From an uncultured delta proteobacterium (GTDB lineage Bacteria; Desulfobacterota; Binatia; Binatales; Binataceae): a stretch of 64,000 bases of DNA. Of the stretch, positions 36,584 through 43,336 are shown piece by piece. The notes under the pieces are model-generated. The model was not told the DNA's origin and did no database searches. It saw only the letters and a program-made list of their open reading frames with translations. The stretch covers positions 160,001 through 224,000 of the forward strand of contig CAVRVY010000004.1 of the NCBI GenBank assembly GCA_963724765.1. Direction: 5' to 3'. Every line of letters starts with the position of its first letter. Within the stretch, counting starts at the first letter, position 1. Both the position numbers and the translations under genes were made by a program.

Positions 36584-37318
36584 TCAGTTGAGCAGGCGGC
36601 CGCCGTCGAGCACCAGCGTCGCGCCGGTGGCGAAGTCGGTGCCCTCGCACAAGAACATCACCGCGCGCGCAACATCTTCCGGAGAGCCCAGCCGCTTGAC
36701 CAGCGTTCCCGCAACCATGCGAGCGGTTTCCTCGTCGCTGGAGTCCTCGGGCGGCATCACGGGCCCCAGCGCGACGCAGTTGACCTGGACCTCGGGCGCC
36801 AGCGCTTTGGCCAGCGCGCGCGTCAATCCGATGAGCCCGCTCTTGGAGACCGTGTACGGCAGGTAATTGTTGTAGGGGCGAATCCCGGCCCAGTCGCCGA
36901 TGTTGACGATTTTGCCCGCGCCCTGACGACGCATCGCCGCGCCCGCGAACTTGGAAAGAAAAAACGGAGCTTTCAGATTCGTGTCGAGGTTGACGTCCCA
37001 GTCGTGCTCGGTGACCTCCTCGAGCGGCTTGCGATAGAAGACCGACGCGCAGTTGACCAGCACGTCGATACGGCTAAACACGCTTAGCACTTCGCTGACC
37101 ATCCGCTCGATCTCGGCCACGCTTTCGAGATTCGCGCCGAAGGCGCGCGCGGCGCCGCCCGTGCGCGCGATCTCAGCGACAAACGATTCGGCCTCGGCGC
37201 GCGAGCGGTTGTAGTGCACCGCAACCGCGGCTCCGCGCTCGGCGAAGTGCTCCGCAATCGTACGGCCCACGCGGCGCGCGGCGCCGGTCACCAGTGCGAC
37301 CTTGCCCTTGAGTTCCAT
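36584..37318 (-). CDS. Short-chain dehydrogenase, pteridine reductase/FolM-like
   Basis: TGAARRVG, VHYNRS, YTVSK. Confidence 0.85.
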   Translation of the reverse strand: MELKGKVALVTGAARRVGRTIAEHFAERGAAVAVHYNRSRAEAESFVAEIARTGGAARAFGANLESVAEIERMVSEVLSVFSRIDVLVNCASVFYRKPLEEVTEHDWDVNLDTNLKAPFFLSKFAGAAMRRQGAGKIVNIGDWAGIRPYNNYLPYTVSKSGLIGLTRALAKALAPEVQVNCVALGPVMPPEDSSDEETARMVAGTLVKRLGSPEDVARAVMFLCEGTDFATGATLVLDGGRLLN

Positions 37319-37399: not shown

Positions 37400-38662
37400 C
37401 TATAGCGCAGCCTTCACCGCGCGCACTAGCGCGAGGTTGTCCGAATGGCCGGTCTTGTGCGCGATGACGTGGCCCAGGATCGGCCGTCCCAGCAGGTAGA
37501 GGTCGCCGATCAGGTCGAGCACCTTGTGGCGCGCGAATTCGTCAGCGAAGCGCAGCGTCGTGTTAACCACCTTCTCGTCGTCGATTAGGATCAGGTTGTC
37601 GAGCCGCCCGCCGCTGGCGAGACCCATCTCGGCCAGCTTGTGGAATTCATGCACGAAGCCGAAGGTCCGCGCGGGAGCGATCTCGCGTATGTAGGCCGCG
37701 GGTGAGGTCAACTCGAAATGCACGCTCTGGCGTCCGATCGGCCGCGGATATTCCAGGGTGTAGTCGACTATGAGGTGATCGGCGGGCTCGACGCGGATCG
37801 ACTCGCCGTTGTTGCCGACCACGATCGGACGCTCGACTTTGACCGGCTCGACCGCGGCTTCCTGCTCTTCCACACCCACTTCGGATATCTGCCGGCAGAA
37901 TTCGATCGCCGAACCGTCGAGCGCCGGCACTTCGTCGTCGGTCTTGATCAGCAGGTTGCTGATTCCCATCCCGTGCAGCGCGGACATCAGGTGCTCGACC
38001 GTGCGTACGGAACGTCCGCCCGCCGTAAGCGTGGTGTTGTAGCCCGTATCGGTGACGTTCTCCAGCCGCGCCGCGATCGCGGTCTCGTCGGCGACCGAGG
38101 AAAAGACGATTCCGAAGCCGGCCGGCGCGGGATGCAGGATCACCCCGGTCTTGAGCCCCGAATGGAGTCCCTGCCCTGCCGCGACCACCGAGCGCACCAG
38201 CGTGCGCTGTTTGAGTCCGGAAATCCCTGCGAGCGGCGTCGGTCGCGGCACCGCCCCGGCGTCAATTGCCGTCGCGCCTGGCATGCGCACGCCGCCTGCC
38301 TCGCGTTCGAGCACGCGTTCGATCGAAGTCAGCAGACCACTGACCGAAAACGGCTTCTCGATGAAGTCGGCGGCGCCAAGCCGGGTCGCGGCGACCGCGT
38401 TCTGGATGTTGCCGTGGCCCGAGATCATGATCACGCGGACCTCGGGCCGCTCGGCCTTGATCCGGCGGAGTAACTCGATGCCGTCGATGTTGGGCATCCA
38501 GATGTCGAGCAATACGAGCGCCGGGTTCTCGCGCGCGATAAGCGCCATCACGCCGGCGGGATCGCCGGTGTCGAGTACGCGAAAGCCCTCGTCGCCCAAA
38601 ATTCCACGGAGCGATGACCGAATCCGCTCCTCATCATCCACCACCAATACGGTCTCGTTCAC
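37400..38662 (-). CDS. lpxC: Response-regulator receiver domain fused to UDP-3-O-acyl-GlcNAc deacetylase LpxC
   Basis: N-terminal REC (VVDDEE, LLDIWMP, ISGHG, EKPF); LpxC from KQRTL (~38212): GLHSG, TVEHLMSAL, ARTFGF, HKVLDLIGDL, GH. Confidence 0.92.
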   Translation of the reverse strand: MNETVLVVDDEERIRSSLRGILGDEGFRVLDTGDPAGVMALIARENPALVLLDIWMPNIDGIELLRRIKAERPEVRVIMISGHGNIQNAVAATRLGAADFIEKPFSVSGLLTSIERVLEREAGGVRMPGATAIDAGAVPRPTPLAGISGLKQRTLVRSVVAAGQGLHSGLKTGVILHPAPAGFGIVFSSVADETAIAARLENVTDTGYNTTLTAGGRSVRTVEHLMSALHGMGISNLLIKTDDEVPALDGSAIEFCRQISEVGVEEQEAAVEPVKVERPIVVGNNGESIRVEPADHLIVDYTLEYPRPIGRQSVHFELTSPAAYIREIAPARTFGFVHEFHKLAEMGLASGGRLDNLILIDDEKVVNTTLRFADEFARHKVLDLIGDLYLLGRPILGHVIAHKTGHSDNLALVRAVKAAL

Positions 38663-38731
38663 TATTGTCCTTTGGATAGAATGGTTCGCGCCGATTGAAT
38701 AGAAGGCTGGCGCGCCGGGATGCCCGCGCGC

Positions 38732-40966
38732 CTAGCCGAGAACCTTGGCTGATAGCTGGTCTTTTATCGGAAACTCGAGCACGAATCTACTTCCCCTGGG
38801 CGGGTTGTCGCGCACCCGCACGAAGCCGTGATGGTCACCGACGATCGCAGAGACGATCGCCAGGCCGAGACCGGTGCCGCCCTTGCGGGTGGAAAAGTAG
38901 GGCTCGAAAATTCGCGACCGCAGCGCCAGTGGGATGCCGGGGCCGTTGTCGCCTACCTCCAGCGTGACCACGCCGCTTTGCGCGTCGAGCGCGGTGCGAA
39001 CTTCGATTCGCGGCCGTGCGCCGTTGGGGTTGGCCGTGACGGCGGCGTTGACCGCGTTCTCGAGCAGGTTGACCAGTGCACGCTTGAGCGCGTCGCGGTC
39101 GATCGCGATTTGTGGCAGCGCGGGCGCCAGCGCGACCCCGAAGTCGACGCCCGGGTTGGCGTCGCGAAAGGTCGCCACTGTCTCCTCCGTCAGCGGGTTG
39201 AGATCGCCCGGCGTGGGATTGAGATGCGGCATCCGGGCGAACGCTGAGAATTCGCTCACCAGGCGCTTTAGGTCCTCAACCTCACCGATAATAATGCGCG
39301 TGCATTCGTCGACCAGCTTGGCGTCGCCGCCGGAGCGCGTGGCGAGCTGGCGGCGTAGCCGCTCGGCCGAGAGCTGGATCGGAGTGAGCGGATTTTTAAT
39401 CTCGTGCGCGATCCTGCGGGCGACCTCGCGCCACGCTTCCATCCGCTCGACCTTGGCCAGCTGGCTCACGTCCTCCAGGAACAGTACCGTGCCCAACTCG
39501 CCGTCGCTGTCCTCGCCGAGCGCGCTCGCCGTGACCATCAGCTCGATTTCGCCGCCGCCCAGCGGCTGCAGCTTAATCGAGGAGCGGGCTTCATGGGGAC
39601 GGCGATGCTCGGCGAAAATTTCCTCCAGCGAGTGCGCCAATGCGGGCTGGAACACGGCGCGCCATCCGCGCCCCAGCACCTCTCCCGCCTTGAGCCCGAG
39701 TATCCTCTCCGCATACGGATTGATCGCGGTCACGATACCGTGAGGGTCCAGGCCGACCACGCCCGCGCTGACGTTACGCAGCAGCGTCTCGGTATACGCA
39801 CGGCGGCGCTCAAGCTCGGTCTGTGAAGCACGCAGGTCGGTCGTCATCCGGTTGAACGAGTTCACCAGTTGACCGATTTCGTCGTCGCCGACCGAGGGGA
39901 TTTCGTAATCGAGGTCGCCATGGGCGATCGCTTGCGTGCCTTCGGCCAACAACTTAATCGGAACCGTCACGCTGCGCGCGAGATACATACCAAACCAGCT
40001 CGCCAGCAGCACCACCACCAGCCCAATCAGCATCAGGGCGAGAAAGTAGCTGCGCATGATGGGCTGACGCAGCGTACGCAATTGAAAGTAATCCTCGAAA
40101 GTCTGCGAGATACCGGCCGCGCGCTGCGCCAGGCTGCGTGGCAGGTAATAGTCGACCACCACCGCGCCGGTCACCACGTCGGACTCCGGCGACGAATAGA
40201 TCGGCGCGGTGCCGCGAATCACGTCCGACTTTCCGAAGCGGTCGGTGCGCGTGACCGCGTGGCCGCCGAGTGTTTGCGCCAGCAATGGCGAGTCTGGCGC
40301 CACGCCGATCCCGGTCGGAGTCCTGGGGCTGAGTGCGATCAGCAGAAGACGGCGAGTGTTATCGAAGACCTCGATCGTACCGAGGTTGTAGTCCTGCTGA
40401 CGCTGCGCGACGAAACTTTTCAACTCGGCGCGCCGTTCGGGCCGCAGCAAGTCCTTGGCCGCGACCTCGCCAGCTATTTCGCGCGCGAAGTGGGCTGCGT
40501 TGTTGGCCGCGCTCAGGTAATAGACTTTCGCGATATCGAGCGAGTCGTCGAGTACGCGTTCATATTCGGGATTAAACCAGCTCGCGACGTCGGCGCGCAA
40601 AAACGCTCCCGCGACGATCAGCAGAAACAGACTTGGCACCAGGGCCACCGCGATGAAGCCGAGCACCAGGCGCACCTGGAACTTGGAGCCGATGAGGCCG
40701 CGGCGATGCTCGAAGATGACCTTGGCCAGGTTGCGTCCGACCAGTAGCAGGAGCAGGCCCAGCAGCAGGAAGCTGATGTCGAACAGCAGGATTACGACCA
40801 GGTTGGAGACCAGTGAAGTATGGCGGGTAAGCGGCGGCAGCTCGGTCTGCGCGAGCACGAAGGCAACCAGCACCGTGGCCGCCACACCCACCGCGATAAG
40901 CTCGCGGCGGCGCCGCTTGAGGTCGGCCTGGCGCGTGGAGTCGCGAGCGCTATGGTCACCGGTCAC
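38732..40966 (-). CDS. NtrY-like sensor histidine kinase (TM, HAMP, PAS, HisKA, HATPase)
   Basis: AWREVARRIAHEIKNPLTPIQLSAERL, NLLENA, DNGPG, GTGLGLAIV. Confidence 0.92.
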   Translation of the reverse strand: MTGDHSARDSTRQADLKRRRRELIAVGVAATVLVAFVLAQTELPPLTRHTSLVSNLVVILLFDISFLLLGLLLLLVGRNLAKVIFEHRRGLIGSKFQVRLVLGFIAVALVPSLFLLIVAGAFLRADVASWFNPEYERVLDDSLDIAKVYYLSAANNAAHFAREIAGEVAAKDLLRPERRAELKSFVAQRQQDYNLGTIEVFDNTRRLLLIALSPRTPTGIGVAPDSPLLAQTLGGHAVTRTDRFGKSDVIRGTAPIYSSPESDVVTGAVVVDYYLPRSLAQRAAGISQTFEDYFQLRTLRQPIMRSYFLALMLIGLVVVLLASWFGMYLARSVTVPIKLLAEGTQAIAHGDLDYEIPSVGDDEIGQLVNSFNRMTTDLRASQTELERRRAYTETLLRNVSAGVVGLDPHGIVTAINPYAERILGLKAGEVLGRGWRAVFQPALAHSLEEIFAEHRRPHEARSSIKLQPLGGGEIELMVTASALGEDSDGELGTVLFLEDVSQLAKVERMEAWREVARRIAHEIKNPLTPIQLSAERLRRQLATRSGGDAKLVDECTRIIIGEVEDLKRLVSEFSAFARMPHLNPTPGDLNPLTEETVATFRDANPGVDFGVALAPALPQIAIDRDALKRALVNLLENAVNAAVTANPNGARPRIEVRTALDAQSGVVTLEVGDNGPGIPLALRSRIFEPYFSTRKGGTGLGLAIVSAIVGDHHGFVRVRDNPPRGSRFVLEFPIKDQLSAKVLG

Positions 40967-41230: not shown

Positions 41231-43336
41231 CTAGGCGTGCGCGCGCTCCCTTTGCGCGGCCTCACGCGCCTCGCGCGCCTCCTTGACGATCTTTTCGGTG
41301 ACTGGCGGGGGCGCTTCCTCGTAGTGCGAGAAATGCGCCTCGAACGATCCGCGCCCCGAGGTCTTCGAGCGCAGGTCGGGCGCATACTTCAGGATCTCCG
41401 ACATCGGCACCAGCGCCTTGATGACCTGGCTCTGGCCCTTGCGATCCATCCCGAGCACCTTGCCGCGCCGCGCGTTGAGATCGCCGATCACGTCGCCCAT
41501 GCATTCGTCGGGGCAACTCACATCCAGCGCCATCACTGGCTCCAGGATGATCGGCCGGGCTTTTTCGAACGCCGCCTTAAGCCCCATCGAGGCCGCAATC
41601 TGGAAGGCCATGTCGGAGGAATCGACGTCGTGATAGCTGCCTTCGAAAACCGAGACTTTGATGTCCACCACCGGAAAGCCGGCCAGATAGCCCTCGACCA
41701 GCGTGTTGCGCACGCCCTTTTCGACCGACGGGATGAACTGGCGCGGGATCGCGCCGCCGACGATCTCGTCCTTGAACTCGAAACCGCCGCCGCGCGGGAG
41801 CGGCTCTACCTTGAGCCAGCAGTCGCCATACTGTCCGCGGCCGCCTGATTGGCGCTTGTACTTGCCCTGGGCTTCGGCGCGGCCCTTGATGGTTTCCTTG
41901 TAGGGCACCTTGGGCGGCTGAAGTTCAACTTCTACATTAAATTTTCGCTTGAGCTTCTCGACCGTGACCTCGATATGCATCTGCCCCGTGCCCGAGAGGA
42001 TGATCTCGTGGGTTTGCGGATCGCGATGAGTTTCCAGCGCCCGGTCCTCTTCGACCAGGTGCTGCAGCGCCTGTGAGGCTTTCTGCTCGTCGCCCTTGGT
42101 CTTCGGGCGAATCGCAAAGGAGATGACCGTGGCCGGCCGCTCGGGCGCCGGGAAGATGACCGGGGATTTTTCGTCGCACAGCGTGTCGCAGGTCGTGGTG
42201 TCTTTGAGCTTGGCGACCGCAACGATCTCACCCGGCAGCGCGGTTGCGATTGGCGACTGCTTCTTGCCCTCCAGCCGCAGGAGCTGGCCGAAGCGCTCGC
42301 GCACGCCGCGGGTCGAGTTGAGCACCGTAGCGTCGCTTAGGGCGCGGCCCGAGACCACGCGAAAAATCGACAGCTTGCCGGCAAACGGATCGATGACGGT
42401 TTTGAAGACGAAGGCTGAAAACGGCGCCGCCGGGTCGGGCGCGCGCTCGACCGGCTCGCTGTTTGTGCCGCTGAAGCCCTGGCGCGCCGGCCGCACGTTG
42501 GGCGCTGGGAGCAGCGTGTCGATCGCGTCGAGCAACGGCCCGATGCCGATATTCTTAAGCCCCGAGCCGCATAGTACCGGCGTGAGCTTGCCCGCGGCGG
42601 TGGCCGCGCGCAGCGCCGCGCGCAACTCATCGTCCTCCAGCACGCCCTTGTCGAGGTACTTCTCGAGCAGCGCGTCGTCGGTCTCCGCCACGGCCTCGCA
42701 CAGGCGCGTGCGCGCGGTTTCCGCGCGCTCCTTCTGCTCGGCGCTCAGCACTTCCTCCCTGGGTTTGCCACTGGCGTCGGCGTAAATCAGCGCCTTCATC
42801 GCGAGCACGTCGATCACGCCGTTGAACGTGAGTTCAGCACCGATCGGGAGCGTCAGCGCGACTGGATGCGCGTCGAGCGATTTCTCCAGGTCCGTCATCG
42901 CATGGTCAAAGCTGTTGCGTTCACGGTCCAGGCGCGAGACGAAAGCGATTCGCGGAAGGCCAAGCTCGTTCATCTCGGCCCAAATCTTTTCCGATTCGAC
43001 CTTGAGGTCGCCGCCGGCCGTGGCCACGAACACCAGGCTGTCGACCGCGCGCATGGTCGCAAACGAGTCGGGCAGGAACGCCTGGTAGCCGGGAGTGTCG
43101 GCGAGGATGACCTCGTCTTTTTTCCAGTTGTAGTGATGAAACGCCGAGCTGATCGAGATTTTCCGATGCAACTCCTCGGGCTCGAAGTCCATCGCGGCCG
43201 TGCCGTCGTCGGGCCGCCCCTGCCGGGTCAGCATGCCAGCCGTAAACAGCATCGCCTCGGCCAACTCGGTTTTGCCGGTCGCGCCCTGACCGACGATCGC
43301 GATGCTCCTCAGACGTCCGATTTCCTCCACAGCCAT
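41231..43336 (-). CDS. Elongation factor G paralog (EF-G2 type)
   Basis: Full five-domain EF-G (KRQSGGRGQYG, GSYHDVDSS, EPVM) with divergent G motifs; not in the str operon. Confidence 0.9.
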   Translation of the reverse strand: MAVEEIGRLRSIAIVGQGATGKTELAEAMLFTAGMLTRQGRPDDGTAAMDFEPEELHRKISISSAFHHYNWKKDEVILADTPGYQAFLPDSFATMRAVDSLVFVATAGGDLKVESEKIWAEMNELGLPRIAFVSRLDRERNSFDHAMTDLEKSLDAHPVALTLPIGAELTFNGVIDVLAMKALIYADASGKPREEVLSAEQKERAETARTRLCEAVAETDDALLEKYLDKGVLEDDELRAALRAATAAGKLTPVLCGSGLKNIGIGPLLDAIDTLLPAPNVRPARQGFSGTNSEPVERAPDPAAPFSAFVFKTVIDPFAGKLSIFRVVSGRALSDATVLNSTRGVRERFGQLLRLEGKKQSPIATALPGEIVAVAKLKDTTTCDTLCDEKSPVIFPAPERPATVISFAIRPKTKGDEQKASQALQHLVEEDRALETHRDPQTHEIILSGTGQMHIEVTVEKLKRKFNVEVELQPPKVPYKETIKGRAEAQGKYKRQSGGRGQYGDCWLKVEPLPRGGGFEFKDEIVGGAIPRQFIPSVEKGVRNTLVEGYLAGFPVVDIKVSVFEGSYHDVDSSDMAFQIAASMGLKAAFEKARPIILEPVMALDVSCPDECMGDVIGDLNARRGKVLGMDRKGQSQVIKALVPMSEILKYAPDLRSKTSGRGSFEAHFSHYEEAPPPVTEKIVKEAREAREAAQRERAHA

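Follow-up and report, generated by a model that had tools for sequence, protein, structure and literature searches.

A receiver domain fused to the sole LpxC of a Binataceae bacterium suggests a response regulator joined to its own target

We propose that a 420-amino-acid (aa) protein encoded in a stretch of 64,000 nucleotides (nt) from an uncultured soil bacterium of the Binataceae (contig CAVRVY010000004.1, positions 160,001 to 224,000; hereafter the window) is a response regulator in which the only LpxC of the cell serves as the output domain. LpxC is the zinc deacetylase that commits UDP-3-O-acyl-GlcNAc to lipid A, and in the window protein it is preceded in the same reading frame by a receiver (REC) domain and encoded behind an NtrY-type sensor histidine kinase. 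In the reading that we favor, the state of the receiver, as set by the kinase, would set the output of LpxC, and the protein would descend from an activator of lpxC; we put the probability of this reading at roughly 0.6. The window protein belongs to a larger family, so far undescribed, and is the most reduced of its forms.

A proposed response regulator with LpxC as its output domain

The gene is a single uninterrupted open reading frame (ORF), and the ORF list, Pfam and NCBIfam together confirm what the first-pass annotation of this DNA had described, a receiver joined through a linker to a complete LpxC. Pfam places Response_reg (PF00072) at residues 5-114, with an E-value of 1.9e-29 and a score of 102.5 bits (cut-off 30.2), and LpxC (PF03331) at residues 152-416, covering profile positions 1-266 of 268 (E 5.4e-89), and the score of 249.4 bits to the NCBIfam lpxC equivalog TIGR00325 exceeds its cut-off of 187.25. 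The LpxC part aligns over its full length with solved LpxC chains and its catalytic motifs are identical to theirs; E223-H224, T333, H379-K380, D383, D387 and H406 are all in place, and we take these to be the zinc ligands (His, His, Asp) and the catalytic residues (Glu, His, Thr, Lys, Asp). The receiver has D9, D10, D53 (within LLDIWMP), S81, F100 and K103-P104; the phospho-acceptor pocket and the LpxC motifs, which had been reported as intact, are both located. The linker, earlier put at about 30 aa, is predicted to be disordered (Table 1).

The receiver had also been called NtrX-like, and its best NCBIfam match is indeed NtrX (NF051870; residues 4-121, 121.6 bits), with CheB, RssB and CpdR also among the NCBIfam matches. 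Its best solved-structure relatives are 4d6x and 5m7n (named 'Fis family protein' and 'Nitrogen assimilation regulatory protein'), which we take to be Brucella NtrX. The NtrX score of 121.6 bits covers the receiver part alone and stands against an equivalog cut-off of 600, Pfam finds neither an AAA+ nor a helix-turn-helix (HTH) domain in the 420 aa, and the features of a sigma-54 enhancer-binding protein (an AAA+ module with the GAFTGA loop and the Walker B DE) are missing. By these profile matches the protein is NtrX-like in its receiver part only.

The genome (4 contigs, 5.4 Mb, 97% complete) holds one PF03331 match, which is the fusion gene itself, and this settles the matter of a second, stand-alone lpxC that the first-pass annotation had raised. 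LpxB and LpxK are present and the fusion probably acts within a lipid A pathway. Neither the LapB zinc ribbon (PF18073) nor the YejM N-domain was found in the genome, while FtsH is present; the missing LapB marker is weak evidence because PF18073 matches 10 of 14 control genomes, Gram-positives included.

The kinase upstream of the fusion has the domains of an NtrY-type membrane protein (Table 1). Its NtrY_N match scores 33.9 bits (Pfam cut-off 23.2) and is the only one found in a profile search of the genome, and the H-box (AHEIKNPL), the N box and the G boxes can be read in its translation. The label NtrY applies at the domain level only, because there is no NtrY equivalog among the 25 NCBIfam matches listed. 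The fusion starts 69 nt behind this kinase and occupies the slot of a response regulator, as had been pointed out. From this linkage we presume that the kinase is the cognate kinase of the fusion, and the two genes are probably co-transcribed.

Spread of the fusion in the class and the phylum

The first-pass annotation had called for a search for the REC-LpxC architecture and for its synteny with the kinase. The architecture recurs in database clusters and in our samples of the class and the phylum. In a database search, 119 of the 120 clusters listed (72-100% identity) hold both REC and LpxC, the exception (P0075, 341 aa) having LpxC only, and the named proteins among these clusters come from Candidatus Binataceae or Binatus metagenome-assembled genomes (MAGs), where they are annotated plainly as LpxC. 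All 120 clusters listed in a further database search have the in-frame REC-LpxC architecture.

The class was sampled with 60 other genomes from 17 families, using an LpxC match threshold of E <= 1e-40. Exactly one LpxC match is found in 59 of them, and in 57 it is a full-length fusion (from query residue <=5 to >=416). The three exceptions are a match that ends at a contig end (G162), a match that covers residues 129-417 only (G136) and a genome that is 78% complete and has no match (G154). Of the 59 genomes with an LpxC match, 57 encode an orthologous kinase immediately upstream of it on the same strand, and in the remaining two (G168 and G172) the kinase and the fusion are on separate contigs of fragmented assemblies.

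The phylum sample comprised 120 other genomes from 69 families, of which 26 have a fused LpxC, with the receiver and LpxC in one open frame in every case. Eighteen of these fusions are short (11 families) and eight have an AAA+ module and are ~730 aa in length (5 families). Five genomes with orphan fusions were tested, and each holds one outstanding NtrY-type kinase elsewhere (289-598 bits; next best <=121); no regulator was found within 1.5 kb of these five kinases. A stand-alone lpxC occurs beside the fused LpxC in only one of the 26 genomes, G034, in which the REC-LpxC gene is an orphan (loci L028/L052) and the stand-alone lpxC is preceded, at 54 nt, by a perfect sigma-54-like element and has an NtrY-type kinase behind it; a regulator beside that kinase was not found within the stretch examined. 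This genome may represent a transitional or duplicated state.

The organism labels, all of MAGs, are Binataceae, Deltaproteobacteria, Desulfobacterota, Thermodesulfobacteriota, Syntrophaceae, unclassified 'bacterium', Nitrospinota and Candidatus Entotheonellia, the last two being those of the members of clusters P0251 and P0255, the only ones with organism labels among ten diverse fusions looked up. In a scan of named genomes the matches listed are mostly stand-alone lpxC; among them are one clear short fusion, CP070817.1 (a deltaproteobacterial MAG), and a locus (L070), possibly of a long form, whose match spans query residues 141-416 with 50% identity, and there is no cultured carrier of the fusion among the matches listed. 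Two long open frames, of 1378 aa in G110 and 1007 aa in G076, were considered as kinase-receiver-LpxC triple fusions and rejected; they are stop-free upstream extensions in GC-rich DNA, because the kinase is in another frame.

A family of graded forms with an apparent single origin

The long forms of ~730 aa consist, according to Pfam, of REC, a sigma-54-type AAA+ module with its lid, and LpxC (for example L032:3151-5331), and a search with one of them gives the REC-AAA+-LpxC architecture in 119 of the 120 clusters listed. The loci that encode them (L029-L033, L045, L046 and L053) often place them behind an NtrY-type kinase. We scanned with Pfam 61 proteins that were picked from the 150 highest-scoring representatives at 50% identity, and these comprise 22 complete REC-LpxC proteins, 14 REC-AAA+-LpxC proteins, 19 fragments of one or the other, five with LpxC only and one LpxC-FabA (P0328). 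There is an HTH_8 match between the lid and LpxC in P0251 and, weakly, in P0253, and a weak one between REC and LpxC in P0255. The spacing from REC to LpxC is graded, from 16-110 aa in 41 short forms to 254-344 aa in 23 long forms. Walker A is present in 21 of the 23 long forms, while GAFTGA and the Walker B Glu are present in none (0/23 each), and because these two features are lost the AAA+ module of the long forms no longer contacts sigma-54 or hydrolyzes ATP in the usual way, although it may retain nucleotide binding or a role in assembly.

For 106 LpxC domains, of which 64 are fused, 39 stand alone and three come from LpxC-FabZ, a tree was built as a quick LG+G4 analysis without bootstraps and rooted on the FabZ fusions, the non-fused domains being those of the loci examined and the closest stand-alone database matches. 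All 64 fused domains fall into one clade (SH-aLRT 99), which also contains three short 'stand-alone' records that are possibly truncated. Short and long forms are interleaved within the clade, and the starred branches alone require at least seven changes of the label 'short'. Hence the fused LpxC appears to have had one origin, followed by repeated reduction.

Both halves of the protein are well conserved in these 64 fused proteins. In the receiver D9 is kept in 61, D10 in 62, D53 in 62, S/T81 in 64 and K103 in 63, the aromatic switch residue F100 is kept like the rest of the pocket in 61-64, and the catalytic and zinc residues of LpxC are kept in 63-64. Judged by this conservation, the phospho-acceptor pocket and the catalytic center are both under selection. 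The C-terminal tail after LpxC has a median length of 3 aa in the fused proteins versus 28 aa in their stand-alone relatives. Eight LpxC positions (residues 173, 232, 240, 256, 292, 359, 389 and 404) combine a conservation of 80% or more within the fused clade with no more than 15% sharing by stand-alone LpxC, among them Lys240, which is mostly Glu in stand-alone LpxC, and these are candidates for a clade-specific surface.

Probable descent from a dedicated regulator of lpxC

The stand-alone lpxC loci suggest where the fusion came from. We chose 11 such loci for a receiver match within ~4 kb of lpxC, and all 11 have the same order of lpxC, then an NtrY-type kinase, then a regulator of ~455 aa. 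The kinases are 33-41% identical to the window kinase over nearly the full length, and the regulators are true sigma-54 activators, because G[AS]FTGA and the Walker B DE are present in all 11. The 300 nt upstream of lpxC were searched for a sigma-54-like -24/-12 element (TGGCAC-N5-TTGC with at most two mismatches, GG and GC fixed), which is found at 9 of 14 stand-alone lpxC loci, upstream of 2 of 26 fused genes and in 116 of 3286 background windows. In eight kinase-linked loci from five families the element lies 37-63 nt before the start codon.

The receiver of the window protein is itself closer to these activators than to anything in its own genome. It is 51-56% identical to the REC domains of the lpxC-linked activators and at most 39% identical to any own-genome paralogue, and in helix alpha-1, which is a main determinant of kinase specificity, the identity is 60-73% to the lpxC-linked activators versus 7-40% to the own-genome paralogues.

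A circuit of this kind is known from Desulfovibrio. The single target of DVU2934 in D. vulgaris is lpxC, and the orthologous operon of S. fumaroxidans has lpxC immediately in front of it (PMC3333781). DVU2934 also appears among GAFTGA regulators, where it is assigned to lipid A synthesis (PMC4641369), and the sigma-54 activator Dde_3003 of D. alaskensis, which receives its signal from the kinase Dde_3000, has lpxC, with a sigma-54 site, as its sole target (PMC4045070).

Taken together, the gene order at the stand-alone loci, the sigma-54-like promoter and the Desulfovibrio systems dedicated to lpxC make it appear that the regulator and its own target became one protein, which afterwards shed the parts that serve transcription. 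The family would have started from a sigma-54 enhancer-binding response regulator dedicated to lpxC transcription, which became fused to the target enzyme. The first losses would have been those of the loop that contacts sigma-54 and of the ATPase glutamate; the DNA-binding helix would have gone next and, in several lineages, the AAA+ module in its entirety. We infer both the fusion of a dedicated lpxC regulator to its own target and the order of these steps from the comparison of present-day sequences. Possibly, a tandem duplication of the lpxC-kinase-activator unit brought an activator beside lpxC before the fusion. The interpretation given in the first-pass annotation is supported at the level of sequence, and the comparative data extend it, in that the fusion would descend from an lpxC-linked kinase/activator pair.

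Proposed mechanism and structure predictions

In the mechanism that we propose, the NtrY-type membrane kinase would sense a signal and set the phosphorylation state of Asp53, and the state of the receiver would then set LpxC output post-translationally, without a transcription step. The likeliest route would be a phosphorylation-dependent change in self-association or in the packing of the receiver against the enzyme, by which the enzyme is opened or closed, much as in CheB or in the assembly switch of NtrC-type activators. We favor this route because the ancestors are assembly-switch activators and because a CheB-like arrangement fits the flexible linker. Phosphotransfer from the window kinase to D53 would thereby affect the activity, assembly or stability of LpxC. 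The fuller version of this proposal, in which a dedicated, envelope-sensing kinase phosphorylates the receiver within LpxC, the flux into lipid A is gated in seconds and the family records the stepwise absorption of a transcription factor by its target enzyme, has in our estimate about even odds.

The structure predictions bear on the route. In the AlphaFold2 model of the window protein both domains have high confidence, with a predicted local distance difference test (pLDDT) score of 85-95 for the receiver and ~30 for the linker (residues 121-148). The predicted template modeling score (pTM) of the model is 0.85, where ~0.66 is computed for two undocked domains of these sizes, and this would imply a fixed packing of the receiver on the enzyme. 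As to a CheB-type packing of the unphosphorylated receiver on the active site, the two models point in different directions, with a pTM of 0.85 for the window protein and 0.66 for a distant homologue. A complex prediction of REC (1-120) with LpxC (149-420) as separate chains scored 0.01 (mark 0.32), was run without controls and counts neither way.

Evidence against the proposal and alternative explanations

Several observations weigh against this proposal. The 11 synteny loci were pre-selected by the closeness of lpxC and the receiver, and many of them belong to genomes that are related to each other. With only 121 columns, the REC tree has poor resolution and places the lpxC-linked activators within the fused receivers only weakly (forks 80-83), and the orthology of the window kinase and receiver with DVU2931/DVU2934 is a putative one, assigned by lpxC-kinase-activator synteny, an arrangement that PMC3333781 also gives for S. 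fumaroxidans. Outside the class the kinase adjoins the short fusion in none of 15 loci (within ~7 kb). With regard to docking, a 47%-identical homologue that was modeled from its own alignment has a pTM of 0.66, with pLDDT ranging from 58 to 83 over its five models, and the two predictions therefore disagree and are equivocal. One conserved rigid coupling is also unlikely, given a disordered linker that ranges in length from 16 to 344 aa. The case for control by phosphorylation is, as a whole, one of sequence comparison.

The main alternative is that the receiver governs LpxC abundance and not catalysis, with phosphorylation exposing or hiding a degradation signal, or recruiting a protease (FtsH, Lon or ClpXP), in place of the C-terminal degron route of the E. 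coli type. We consider this unlikely, although it is the strongest competitor. RssB and CpdR, which are receiver-dependent proteolysis adaptors, are among the matches to the receiver, the fused LpxC has nearly no C-terminal tail (median 3 vs 28 aa), the genome has FtsH but yielded no match to the LapB zinc ribbon or the YejM N-domain, and the known regulation of LpxC is mainly proteolytic, according to a review (PMC12444477). Against this, nothing in the sequence indicates a degron or an adaptor surface, and the family ancestors were assembly-switch activators and not adaptors. It is less probable still that the receiver is a passenger without a regulatory role, whether it serves structure or solubility, drains phosphate from the kinase or merely accompanies LpxC as a CheY-like signaling module. 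The disordered linker of variable length, the absence of confident packing in the second structure model and the 15 of 18 short-fusion loci outside the class that have no adjacent kinase would all suit a passenger. Yet the phospho-acceptor pocket is kept in 61-64 of the 64 proteins, the kinase-fusion gene pair is kept across 17 families and a matching kinase is kept in all five orphan cases tested, and in 57 of 60 class genomes the receiver has stayed on an essential enzyme of which the cell has one copy, which is not expected of a passenger.

In a further alternative, the LpxC part would be a sensor that binds a lipid A precursor and reports to the receiver or a partner, with catalysis supplied otherwise. 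The long forms that bear HTH_8 lend themselves to this idea, a C-terminal ligand-binding domain being conventional for a transcription factor, but we regard it as very improbable given that the zinc and catalytic residues are nearly invariant (63-64 of 64 proteins), that the score lies above the lpxC equivalog cut-off and that no other LpxC was found in the window genome, where LpxB and LpxK are present, nor in 25 of the 26 phylum-sample genomes with a fused LpxC. An assembly or gene-calling artefact that joins two adjacent genes is refuted, as hundreds of independent records show REC and LpxC joined in frame in the same way (119/120 and 120/120 of the clusters listed, and 119/120 for the long form), in 57 of 60 class genomes and at 26 verified phylum-sample loci.

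Relation to known systems

The Desulfovibrio pairs DVU2931/DVU2934 and Dde_3000/Dde_3003 resemble the window system in combining a histidine kinase with an NtrC-family receiver protein, and lpxC is their only known target. They differ in that their regulator acts on the lpxC promoter via sigma-54, whereas the window receiver is covalently joined to LpxC and has no DNA-binding or AAA+ parts. The alphaproteobacterial NtrY/NtrX system shares with the window the NtrY N-terminal region, HAMP, PAS and kinase core as well as the NtrX-type receiver; NtrX, however, regulates transcription across a broad regulon and affects lpxC only indirectly, and the window protein has neither its AAA+ nor its HTH domain. 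Response regulators with enzymatic outputs are a known kind, CheB among them, and in CheB the receiver blocks the active site. The window protein has the same order of N-terminal receiver, flexible linker and C-terminal hydrolase as CheB, but its output is an envelope biosynthetic enzyme that is the sole copy in the cell. A natural LpxC fusion is also known in the bifunctional LpxC-FabZ (NF009667), which carries a second enzyme at the C-terminus and not a signaling domain at the N-terminus, and whose LpxC lies outside the fused clade.

The E. coli FtsH/LapB/YejM system likewise exerts post-translational control on the same committed step (PMC12444477). That control is by proteolysis via the C-terminal tail of LpxC, which carries the FtsH degron according to the title of a reference in PMC3333781 (B22), whereas the fused proteins lack such a tail and the signature domains of LapB and YejM were not found in the window genome. 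The same 2025 review of lipid A regulation states that two-component systems affecting lpxC do not specifically modulate LpxC, and the terms 'response regulator', 'receiver' and 'fusion' do not occur in its main text (PMC12444477). No paper describing a receiver-LpxC protein was found in the literature searched, which did not extend to subscription journals, and this agrees with the earlier remark that such a mode of regulation was not known to be characterized. As far as we can tell, a response regulator with LpxC as its output is new, and so is its descent from a protein that regulated that same gene.

The locus and its neighboring genes

The features of the locus are listed in Table 1. The hairpin in the spacer between the kinase and the fusion has a 10-bp stem and no clear U tract. 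The spacer fold (-22.8 kcal/mol, z -1.1) is not exceptional, as 27 of 200 shuffles fold as well or better, and no terminator-like site was called in the 69 nt. The hairpin could reduce or uncouple the expression of the kinase relative to that of the enzyme. In three class genomes of family f74 (G144, G153 and G171) the kinase match is split (at ~residues 14-439 and 466-739) within one open frame, which suggests an insertion or a divergent segment between the PAS and phospho-acceptor domains.

The short-chain dehydrogenase (SDR) gene that lies 81 nt downstream of the fusion has counterparts that are 34-36% identical near the fusion in L016 and L027. The SDR gene is not a consistent neighbor of the fusion, because it is found at these two of the 26 other fused loci examined. 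The EF-G-like GTPase gene directly upstream of the kinase probably encodes a second EF-G paralogue.

Table 1. Features of the receiver-LpxC locus, in window coordinates
Feature	Position	Strand	Details
Short-chain dehydrogenase gene	36584..37318	minus	adh_short_C2
REC-LpxC fusion gene	37400..38662	minus	uninterrupted ORF, 420 aa plus stop, GTG start; sole lpxC of the genome
LpxC domain	37403..38218	minus	residues 149-420, without C-terminal tail; Pfam, TIGR00325, alignment to solved chains
Linker	38219..38302	minus	residues 121-148, 28 aa; predicted disordered (pLDDT ~30)
Receiver (REC) domain	38303..38662	minus	residues 1-120; Pfam, residue conservation, (beta-alpha)5 secondary structure
Asp53 codon	38504..38506	minus	predicted phospho-acceptor; Asp in 62/64 fused proteins
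Spacer, kinase stop to fusion start	38663..38731	minus	69 nt; AGGA 7 nt ahead of GTG; GC-rich hairpin directly after the stop
Spacer hairpin	38700..38731	minus	
NtrY-type sensor histidine kinase gene	38732..40966	minus	744 aa; NtrY_N (N-terminal membrane region), HAMP, PAS, HisKA, HATPase_c (Pfam)
EF-G-like GTPase gene	41231..43336	minus	701 aa; all five EF-G domains

Significance

If our proposal is true, this would be the first case of control of the committed step of lipopolysaccharide (LPS) synthesis by a signaling domain. The link from signal to enzyme would be written into one polypeptide, which ordinary biochemistry can test, and the ligand of the kinase would reveal what the cell monitors in order to set its LPS output. 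A whole class of widespread soil and sediment bacteria has the fusion as a fixed trait, and it is also found in several further uncultured lineages, which would make it a major natural solution and not a curiosity. The graded forms of the family would, in addition, provide an unusually clear example of the rewiring of a regulatory circuit from transcriptional to post-translational control.

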